From Verrucomicrobiota bacterium (lineage in GTDB: Bacteria; Verrucomicrobiota; Verrucomicrobiia; Verrucomicrobiales; DEV007), in NCBI GenBank assembly GCA_045046875.1, contig JASFYY010000050.1, forward strand, positions 1 to 64,000: a DNA stretch of 64,000 bases. The letters are read 5' to 3'. The notes below the pieces were generated by a model. That model saw only the letters and a program-made list of their open reading frames with translations. It was not told the origin of the DNA and did no database searches. Shown in pieces: positions 27,022-27,103 of the stretch. The translations under genes and the position numbers were made by a program. Each line of letters starts with the position of its first letter. The first letter of the stretch is position 1.

Positions 27022-27103
27022 TGCTCGAGGGGGGACTCGAACCCCCACGGGTTGCCCCACAAGATCCTTAGTCTTGCGCGTCTACCAGTTCCGCCACCCG
27101 AGC
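27022..27103 (-). tRNA. tRNA-Leu, anticodon AAG
   Basis: GCTCGGG TG GCG GAACTGGTAGA CGC G CAAGA CTAAGGA TCTTG TGGG GCAA CCCG T GGGGG TTCGAGT CCCCC CTCGAGC A; class II variable arm, A73, CCA not encoded. Confidence 0.95.

Follow-up and report, generated by a model that had tools for sequence, protein, structure and literature searches.

The window, that is, the whole stretch of 64 kb that was analysed, contains a single tRNA gene, which ARAGORN called as tRNA-Leu(aag) at 27021-27103. On the minus strand its anticodon arm reads CAAGA-CTAAGGA-TCTTG, the anticodon AAG being located at 27069-27067. When aligned with the Rfam model RF00005, the gene scored 53.5 bits (cut-off, 29 bits) over the full 71 positions of the model; its variable arm is long. 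The cloverleaf, the long variable arm, the discriminator A73 and an anticodon of the Leu box, as given by ARAGORN and the Rfam alignment, identify the product as a class II tRNA-Leu; no 3' CCA is encoded. The AAG anticodon in an otherwise intact class II leucine tRNA, as proposed in an earlier sequence-only reading of this DNA, was thus borne out by both programs. Minimum free energy (MFE) folding of the gene did not yield the cloverleaf (z = -1.6), such folding being uninformative for tRNA.

The tRNA gene lies between purU and a divergent glycosyltransferase gene (Table 1). Among 30 loci examined, purU was found beside the AAG gene in 14, the window's included, and the GT2-type glycosyltransferase was present in 12, the GAG locus L030 among them. 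The Leu(GAG) gene of genome G009 is flanked by the same glycosyltransferase, in the same orientation as the window's gene. By eye, the two hexamer-like motifs upstream of the tRNA gene were kept in all 6 loci of the genus, with a varying spacer; a scan of the upstream region for the sigma-70 consensus called 0 promoter sites. Further along the window (28172-33369), two tandem Ser/Thr kinase genes encode proteins of 848 and 822 aa whose long C-terminal regions resemble each other.

Table 1. Features at the tRNA-Leu(AAG) locus, in window coordinates.
Feature	Position	Strand	Evidence
purU (formyltetrahydrofolate deformylase), about 30 nt downstream of the tRNA gene	26127..26990	-	TIGR00655, 394 bits (cut-off, 286)
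tRNA-Leu(AAG) gene, class II	27022..27103	-	ARAGORN, Rfam RF00005, relatives
Discriminator A73 of tRNA-Leu(AAG)	27022	-	
Anticodon stem-loop of tRNA-Leu(AAG), with A31-U39 and A38	27060..27076	-	Sequence
Anticodon AAG	27067..27069	-	Sequence, ARAGORN
A34, predicted TadA target	27069	-	Editing predicted
GT2-type glycosyltransferase, divergent from the tRNA gene	27125..27928	+	NCBIfam matches weak, below cut-off
Probable tRNA promoter, two hexamer-like motifs 16-17 nt apart	27125..27154	-	Predicted by eye

The 83-nt tRNA-Leu(AAG) gene was identical in 5/5 other genomes of the genus, in which the PurU proteins encoded beside it are just 82-93% identical to that of the window, and the same tRNA sequence was also recovered in GTDB locus L106. 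Because the gene is identical in these relatives next to a diverged PurU, and again in L106, an assembly error is excluded, and the gene was confirmed as real and conserved. The doubt raised earlier about the base at position 34, namely that it might be an assembly error or a strain-specific variant, falls with these five copies. Two further observations concern gene copies elsewhere. At locus L014 (genome G029) two identical tRNA-Leu(AAG) copies lie 833 nt apart. The Leu(AAG) genes of G114 and G245 (L153 and L154, 990-1075) have an A-C mismatch at acceptor pair 5-68, a pair that is G-C or G-U in relatives, and this mismatch could bear on maturation or abundance.

Within the order Verrucomicrobiales, 141 genomes of at least 90% completeness were surveyed with one pattern matching either AAG or GAG. 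The AAG form was found in 109 and the GAG form in 30; 0 genomes had both, and two gave no match, one of which (G025) was matched by a looser GAG pattern. Leu(GAG) was found in none of the 109 AAG genomes. By family, AAG was carried by 34/38 genomes of f1, 35/37 of f2, 36/36 of f5, 3/3 of f6 and 1/1 of f8, and GAG by 25/25 of f4, 1/1 of f3 and 4/4 from two genera of f1. The single-contig genome G245, of Akkermansia type, has the Leu tRNAs AAG, CAG, TAG, CAA and TAA and no GAG match. GTDB records that bear the Verrucomicrobiales-type Leu(AAG) are named Akkermansia, Akkermansiaceae, Roseibacillus and Verrucomicrobiales, and the taxonomic names given here were taken from these records. It was concluded that Leu(AAG) has replaced Leu(GAG) in most Verrucomicrobiales genomes checked, Akkermansia included. 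The suggestion of the sequence-only reading that a PVC bacterium has a non-Arg A34 tRNA therefore holds, and the gene is conserved (5/5 in the genus, 109/141 in the order). The pattern that this reading named as support for a functional replacement, AAG across the clade with GAG absent, was seen both in the window's own genome and in the order, where the two forms never coincide.

In a sample of 301 genomes of the phylum, the GAG pattern was found in 253 and the AAG pattern in 37, nearly all of the latter belonging to this order and to family f11 of another order. In f11, an AAG match judged tRNA-like by eye was present in 66/73 genomes, and all 7 GAG pattern matches were without the D-arm consensus. 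A GTDB-wide pattern scan gave at least 80 AAG loci, and all 80 that were listed are called Leu(AAG) by ARAGORN. Judged by title, these 80 listed matches include 14 verrucomicrobial and 15 Lactobacillales entries; the others listed come from Prochlorococcus, Actinomarina, Clostridia, Cloacimonadota, Fermentibacteria, Hydrogenedentota, Synergistota, Planctomycetota and further groups. Among 50 genomes taken from the listed matches, mostly drafts of uncertain completeness, 49 fitted the either-anticodon pattern, the 2 GAG matches were not tRNA-like, and a TadA match was present in 45. The replacement of Leu(GAG) by Leu(AAG) thus appears to recur in many phyla, and the rarity originally claimed for such a tRNA was overstated.

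Of the 65 positions outside the anticodon arm, the window's gene shares 59-61 with four Leu(GAG) genes of the order, 50-56 with five CAG genes and 47-51 with two TAG genes. Over the 17 positions of the arm, there are 9-10 differences from GAG arms and 2-6 from those of CAG or TAG genes (CAG alone, 2-5). From the body identity and the glycosyltransferase synteny with G009, the AAG gene is a former Leu(GAG) gene with a changed arm; body and locus accordingly derive from Leu(GAG), not from Leu(TAG). An origin from Leu(TAG), as put forward in the sequence-only reading, was rejected in view of these body identities and of the GAG gene at the same locus in G009, and only the arm resembles CAG/TAG genes.

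The combination A31 and A38 was found in all 109 AAG matches of the order and in 0/30 GAG matches; in the Leu(GAG) genes of the order, position 31 is U or C and position 38 is G. The A31-U39 pair and A38 are shared with tRNA-Arg(ACG). The anticodon loop of tRNA-Leu(AAG) equals that of tRNA-Arg(ACG) except at position 35, and in G245 the Leu(AAG) and Arg(ACG) arms share an 11-nt core with the same single exception. Since only 2-5 changes separate the arm from Leu(CAG) arms, it need not have been selected for TadA. Among the 80 GTDB-wide matches listed, A31 together with A38 occurs in 53, A38 in 65 and G38 in 13. In f11, three states of the arm were seen, from a GAG-type arm with only G34A up to a full Arg-like arm; a stepwise order of these changes found no support, as the tree does not put the least changed arm at the base.

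On a tree of RpoB and RpoC (32 of 56 rows kept, 12 rows from other orders and 12 redundant or short ones being left out), the anticodon needs 2 changes within the order. A single origin of AAG in the order was rejected on this tree by the monophyly test (AU p 0.0016); the TadA tree gave no resolution on the same point. The RpoB and RpoC result can be explained either by several gains of AAG or by a reversion of f4 to GAG, the ancestral arm included. In genome G012 (L162:198-282), an AAG anticodon is found on a Leu(CAG)-type body, which suggests an arm/body exchange between Leu paralogs or a further origin.

The window's own genome is a draft of 5.59 Mb, 51% GC and 94.7% completeness. ARAGORN found Leu tRNAs with anticodons AAG, CAG, TAG, CAA and TAA in it and no Leu(GAG), an absence that in a draft proves little by itself. 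The G34 tRNAs of Ala, Val, Thr, Pro, Gly and Ser have been retained, and Arg(ACG) is present; no gene for Asn, Ile(GAT) or Ala(TGC) was called in this draft, and a relaxed ARAGORN run on it returned noise only. In 3,233 ORFs of at least 600 nt, CUC makes up 29.8% and CUU 15.5% of the CUN codons. CUC exceeds CUU in the ribosomal and RNA-polymerase genes of 33/38 AAG genomes, and the totals over the 38 AAG gene sets were 4,537 CUC, 2,196 CUU and 226 CUA. As CUC is used about twice as often as CUU, some tRNA must read it. When 38 AAG genomes were compared with 18 GAG genomes, kin among them being non-independent, the Leu U/C ratio differed relative to two-codon boxes (p 7e-6) and the Arg control shifted likewise (p 2e-4); relative to the other four-codon boxes, CUU/CUC showed no difference (p 0.83), and a Leu-specific codon recoding was dropped. 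UUA is rare in both the AAG and the GAG gene sets.

A single TadA was found in the window's own genome (L031:1459-2016), with the HAE and PCxxC motifs intact; it passes the NCBIfam equivalog NF008113 (170.8; cut-off, 150). A TadA match was present in 46/46 Verrucomicrobiota genomes searched. A base-editor review (PMC10586758) puts forward the hypothesis that, in E. coli TadA, the pocket for C35 is kept so small by R26 and R152 that no other base fits. In an alignment whose numbering was anchored by the pairs F148/F144 and R153/R149, residue 171 stands opposite E. coli R152 and S. aureus L148. Among 27 genomes of the order, this residue was Ala in 16/16 AAG genomes and Arg, Lys or Gln in 11/11 GAG genomes, including four GAG genomes of the window's family; the association comprises just 2 independent pairs (sign test, p 0.5). 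The enzyme, to whose recognition residues attention had been drawn earlier, is thus present, with a difference at a residue that has been proposed as part of the lining of the base-35 pocket.

Elsewhere the position behaves differently: f11 TadAs keep Lys there in 9/9 cases (one of uncertain tRNA state), streptococcal TadAs keep Arg, and Ala occurs in 2/43 cross-phylum AAG rows among the matches listed and in 1/11 GAG genomes outside the order. No TadA signature common to all AAG lineages was found, residue 171 varying across phyla, and Ala171 is best taken as a candidate, a lead for this order and not a general rule. A longer C-terminal tail of TadA in AAG genomes was a trend only (2-3 pairs, p 0.5). 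Two other TadA positions were recorded in passing. A Lys stands just before the EPC motif in all 47 Verrucomicrobiota sequences, at a position occupied by Leu in E. coli, S. aureus and B. subtilis. The second position, noted in f11, follows a conserved Asp and holds Glu in genomes with A38 but Pro in those with G38 (8 genomes with known arms).

In order to look for inosine, which is read as G, assembled RNA-seq contigs of the type of genome G245, from four runs of four studies, (X1, X3, X9 and X11) were examined. At A34 of Leu(AAG) (L154:850-1220), A was found in 4/4 runs, all of which cover the position, and no A-to-G change was seen in these contigs, which keep the majority path. At Arg(ACG) (L194:1330-1680), a single T-to-C difference was observed at 1505 in X3 and X11, corresponding to the minus-strand A34 read as G; X1 and X9 did not cover this gene, yet they covered Leu(AAG). 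As the same exact base was affected in two studies, the difference is best read as editing of Arg A34, and the contig method can therefore see inosine. The Leu(AAG) gene of G245 sits inside long contigs between a same-strand gene and a convergent gene. Because of this setting, and of the cover in runs that have no Arg cover, much of the Leu signal likely derives from long or antisense transcripts. Given that contigs follow the majority path and that cover around the gene is continuous, the result means that the majority of Leu molecules there are unedited, not that editing is absent. Inosine and unmodified A34 had both been envisaged in the sequence-only reading; this sole RNA test went against inosine, and it lowers the editing hypothesis but does not remove it.

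In G245, tRNA-Arg(ACG) precedes tmRNA by about 80 nt, both being encoded on one strand (L194:1022-1539). The RNA contig with the edited Arg base reaches 16 nt before the mature 5' end; a 5' extension carrying the edited base would fit editing of the Arg precursor.

The reading preferred here, with a probability of roughly 0.63, is that TadA makes I34 on the mature tRNA-Leu(AAG). A housekeeping leucine tRNA has taken over the locus and the role of tRNA-Leu(GAG), and its A34 is likely deaminated to inosine by the single TadA of the cell, which would allow CUC and CUU to be read. The G34A change would have come first; the arm would then have acquired the A31-U39 pair and A38, either through point changes or through conversion from a paralog of CAG/TAG type, and the base-35 pocket of TadA may have widened to accept A35. 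Editing would proceed more slowly on Leu(AAG) than on tRNA-Arg, given that the long transcripts spanning Leu seem to be unedited. The loop CTAAGGA fits the consensus YUAMGRA of S. pyogenes TadA, as given in 10.1101/2023.09.19.555891. According to PMC11066159, an unedited AAG tRNA in E. coli gave a CUU:CUC ratio of 87:13, changes at 32, 37 or 38 blocked TadA, and about 15% editing was reached with an Arg-like loop. The main functional argument for inosine is that CUC is the commoner codon, and an unedited AAG favours CUU. The sequence-only reading had allowed for an extension of decoding to CUA as well, which is not needed, Leu(TAG) being retained in the window's own genome and in G245.

The functional tRNA may instead be mostly unedited, with A34 reading CUU and, aided by the remodelled arm, CUC, so that the Ala of TadA would be a clade mark or would give partial editing only. 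This is held to be less likely than editing. Leu A34 was unedited in all four contig sets and the Arg control was edited in both of the runs that cover it (2/2). Four-fold-box ANN tRNAs were tolerated unmodified in E. coli (10.64898/2026.05.15.725136), and in O. oeni, which has 4 A34 tRNAs, just 2 of them are edited (work cited in PMC11066159); G38, which lies off the TadA consensus, is present in 13 of the 80 GTDB-wide matches listed and in many f11 genes. However, the 87:13 ratio makes unedited AAG a poor reader of the codon that prevails in 33/38 AAG genomes, and the Leu cover in X1 and X9, where Arg is not covered, likely represents long transcripts and not the tRNA. The repeated arrival at an Arg-like loop and the change in TadA would also be left unexplained. 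Should the tRNA turn out to be unedited, A34 would be reading the most used pyrimidine-ending codon of its box in a genome of full size, of which natural examples are rare.

In Mollicutes and organelles, superwobble through an unmodified U34 is an established mechanism. On this model the AAG tRNA would read CUU only and CUC would fall to tRNA-Leu(UAG) with an unmodified U34, a gene that is indeed present in the window's own genome and in G245. This seems improbable: all other four-codon boxes except Arg keep their G34 reader, the codon to which UAG is cognate, CUA, is seldom used (226 in the AAG gene sets, compared with 4537 CUC), and AAG and GAG exclude each other one for one. Finally, an assembly error, or a strain-specific unexpressed variant beside a missed GAG gene, which the gaps in the tRNA set of the 94.7% complete draft might have suggested, can be dismissed in view of the identical genus copies from independent assemblies, of AAG without GAG in 109 genomes, including single-contig G245, and of the conserved upstream motifs.

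TadA-made I34 would place the verrucomicrobial tRNA beside the Leu(IAG) of Lactobacillales (S. pyogenes, S. mutans and O. oeni). There, an A34 Leu tRNA likewise replaces GAG while TAG is retained, and a single TadA also serves Arg(ACG) (PMC13249217 and 10.1101/2023.09.19.555891). The core loop and the A31-U39 pair agree with those of the streptococcal genes among the GTDB-wide matches listed. By this match in gene content, loop and enzyme, the verrucomicrobial Leu(AAG) is taken to work in the same way, the edit itself being putative. The two differ in tRNA body and phylum, which points to a separate origin, and in base composition, the published genera being 60-70% AT and the window's genome 51% GC. 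Streptococcal TadA has Arg at the R152 position, where Verrucomicrobiales AAG genomes have Ala. In Lactobacillales editing has been demonstrated and a UUA-to-CUY shift published, whereas in Verrucomicrobiales editing is predicted and no Leu-specific codon shift was found. With the standard bacterial I34 of tRNA-Arg(ACG), the system shares the enzyme family NF008113 and, in G245, a loop equal except at 35; Arg A34 editing is visible in the RNA contigs of that genome. Leu(AAG) differs from it by A35 in place of C35 and by its class II body.

Unmodified A34 tRNAs are also found in Mollicutes. The Leu(AAG) of Prochlorococcus and Mycoplasma, mentioned in PMC13249217, similarly has A34 in a four-codon box outside Bacilli, and Prochlorococcus is among the matches listed here. 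These cases, including those of Mollicutes, are mentioned without analysis or belong to reduced AT-rich genomes, whereas in Verrucomicrobiales the switch extends over six family labels of one order, with one family of another, and the other G34 tRNAs are kept.

PMC13249217 reports I34 on streptococcal Leu(AAG) and places almost all such genes in Bacilli, together with Mycoplasma and Prochlorococcus; 10.64898/2026.05.15.725136 lists Firmicutes, scattered Proteobacteria and Mollicutes, all AT-rich. One of these two papers, both of 2026, asks whether Leu(AAG) reaches further. PMC8007984 gives Leuconostocaceae and some Firmicutes. As stated in 10.1101/2023.09.19.555891, TadA of S. pyogenes edits Leu(AAG) and that of E. 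coli did not act on the S. pyogenes tRNA in vitro, the determinant being left open. The string 'Verrucomicrob' is absent from the main texts of these four papers, and, subscription papers and supplementary tables aside, no literature linking Verrucomicrobia or Akkermansia to an A34 Leu tRNA or to TadA editing was found. Genome databases probably already list verrucomicrobial Leu(AAG) genes. The order that carries the switch has genomes of mid and high GC and includes a gut genus that can be cultured; sister lineages keep GAG, and a single candidate TadA residue bears on the open question of how TadA came to accept A35.

A wider reading joins several of these points and is offered tentatively. 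The change from Leu(GAG) to Leu(AAG) might be a common, repeated event and not a lactic-acid oddity; at least two switches may have occurred in Verrucomicrobiales, with the residue at the R152 counterpart opening TadA to A35, and lineages with G38 arms might live on unedited A34. If true, these bacteria would offer a natural series from unedited to edited decoding.

Two minor observations were made on the contigs of genome G000. On a 6 kb contig (G000:C80:5763-6038), two short genes with Leu anticodons (CAG and TAA) lie side by side; they are 76-77 nt long, with divergent bodies and without the long variable arm, and they appear to belong to a tRNA array that is mobile or cryptic. In addition, a 21-nt motif occurs 9 times, in contigs C26, C37, C69, C74, C76, C85, C100, C140 and C153, mostly less than 100 nt from the contig end and followed by common sequence, and it is likely an insertion site or the end of a collapsed mobile element.
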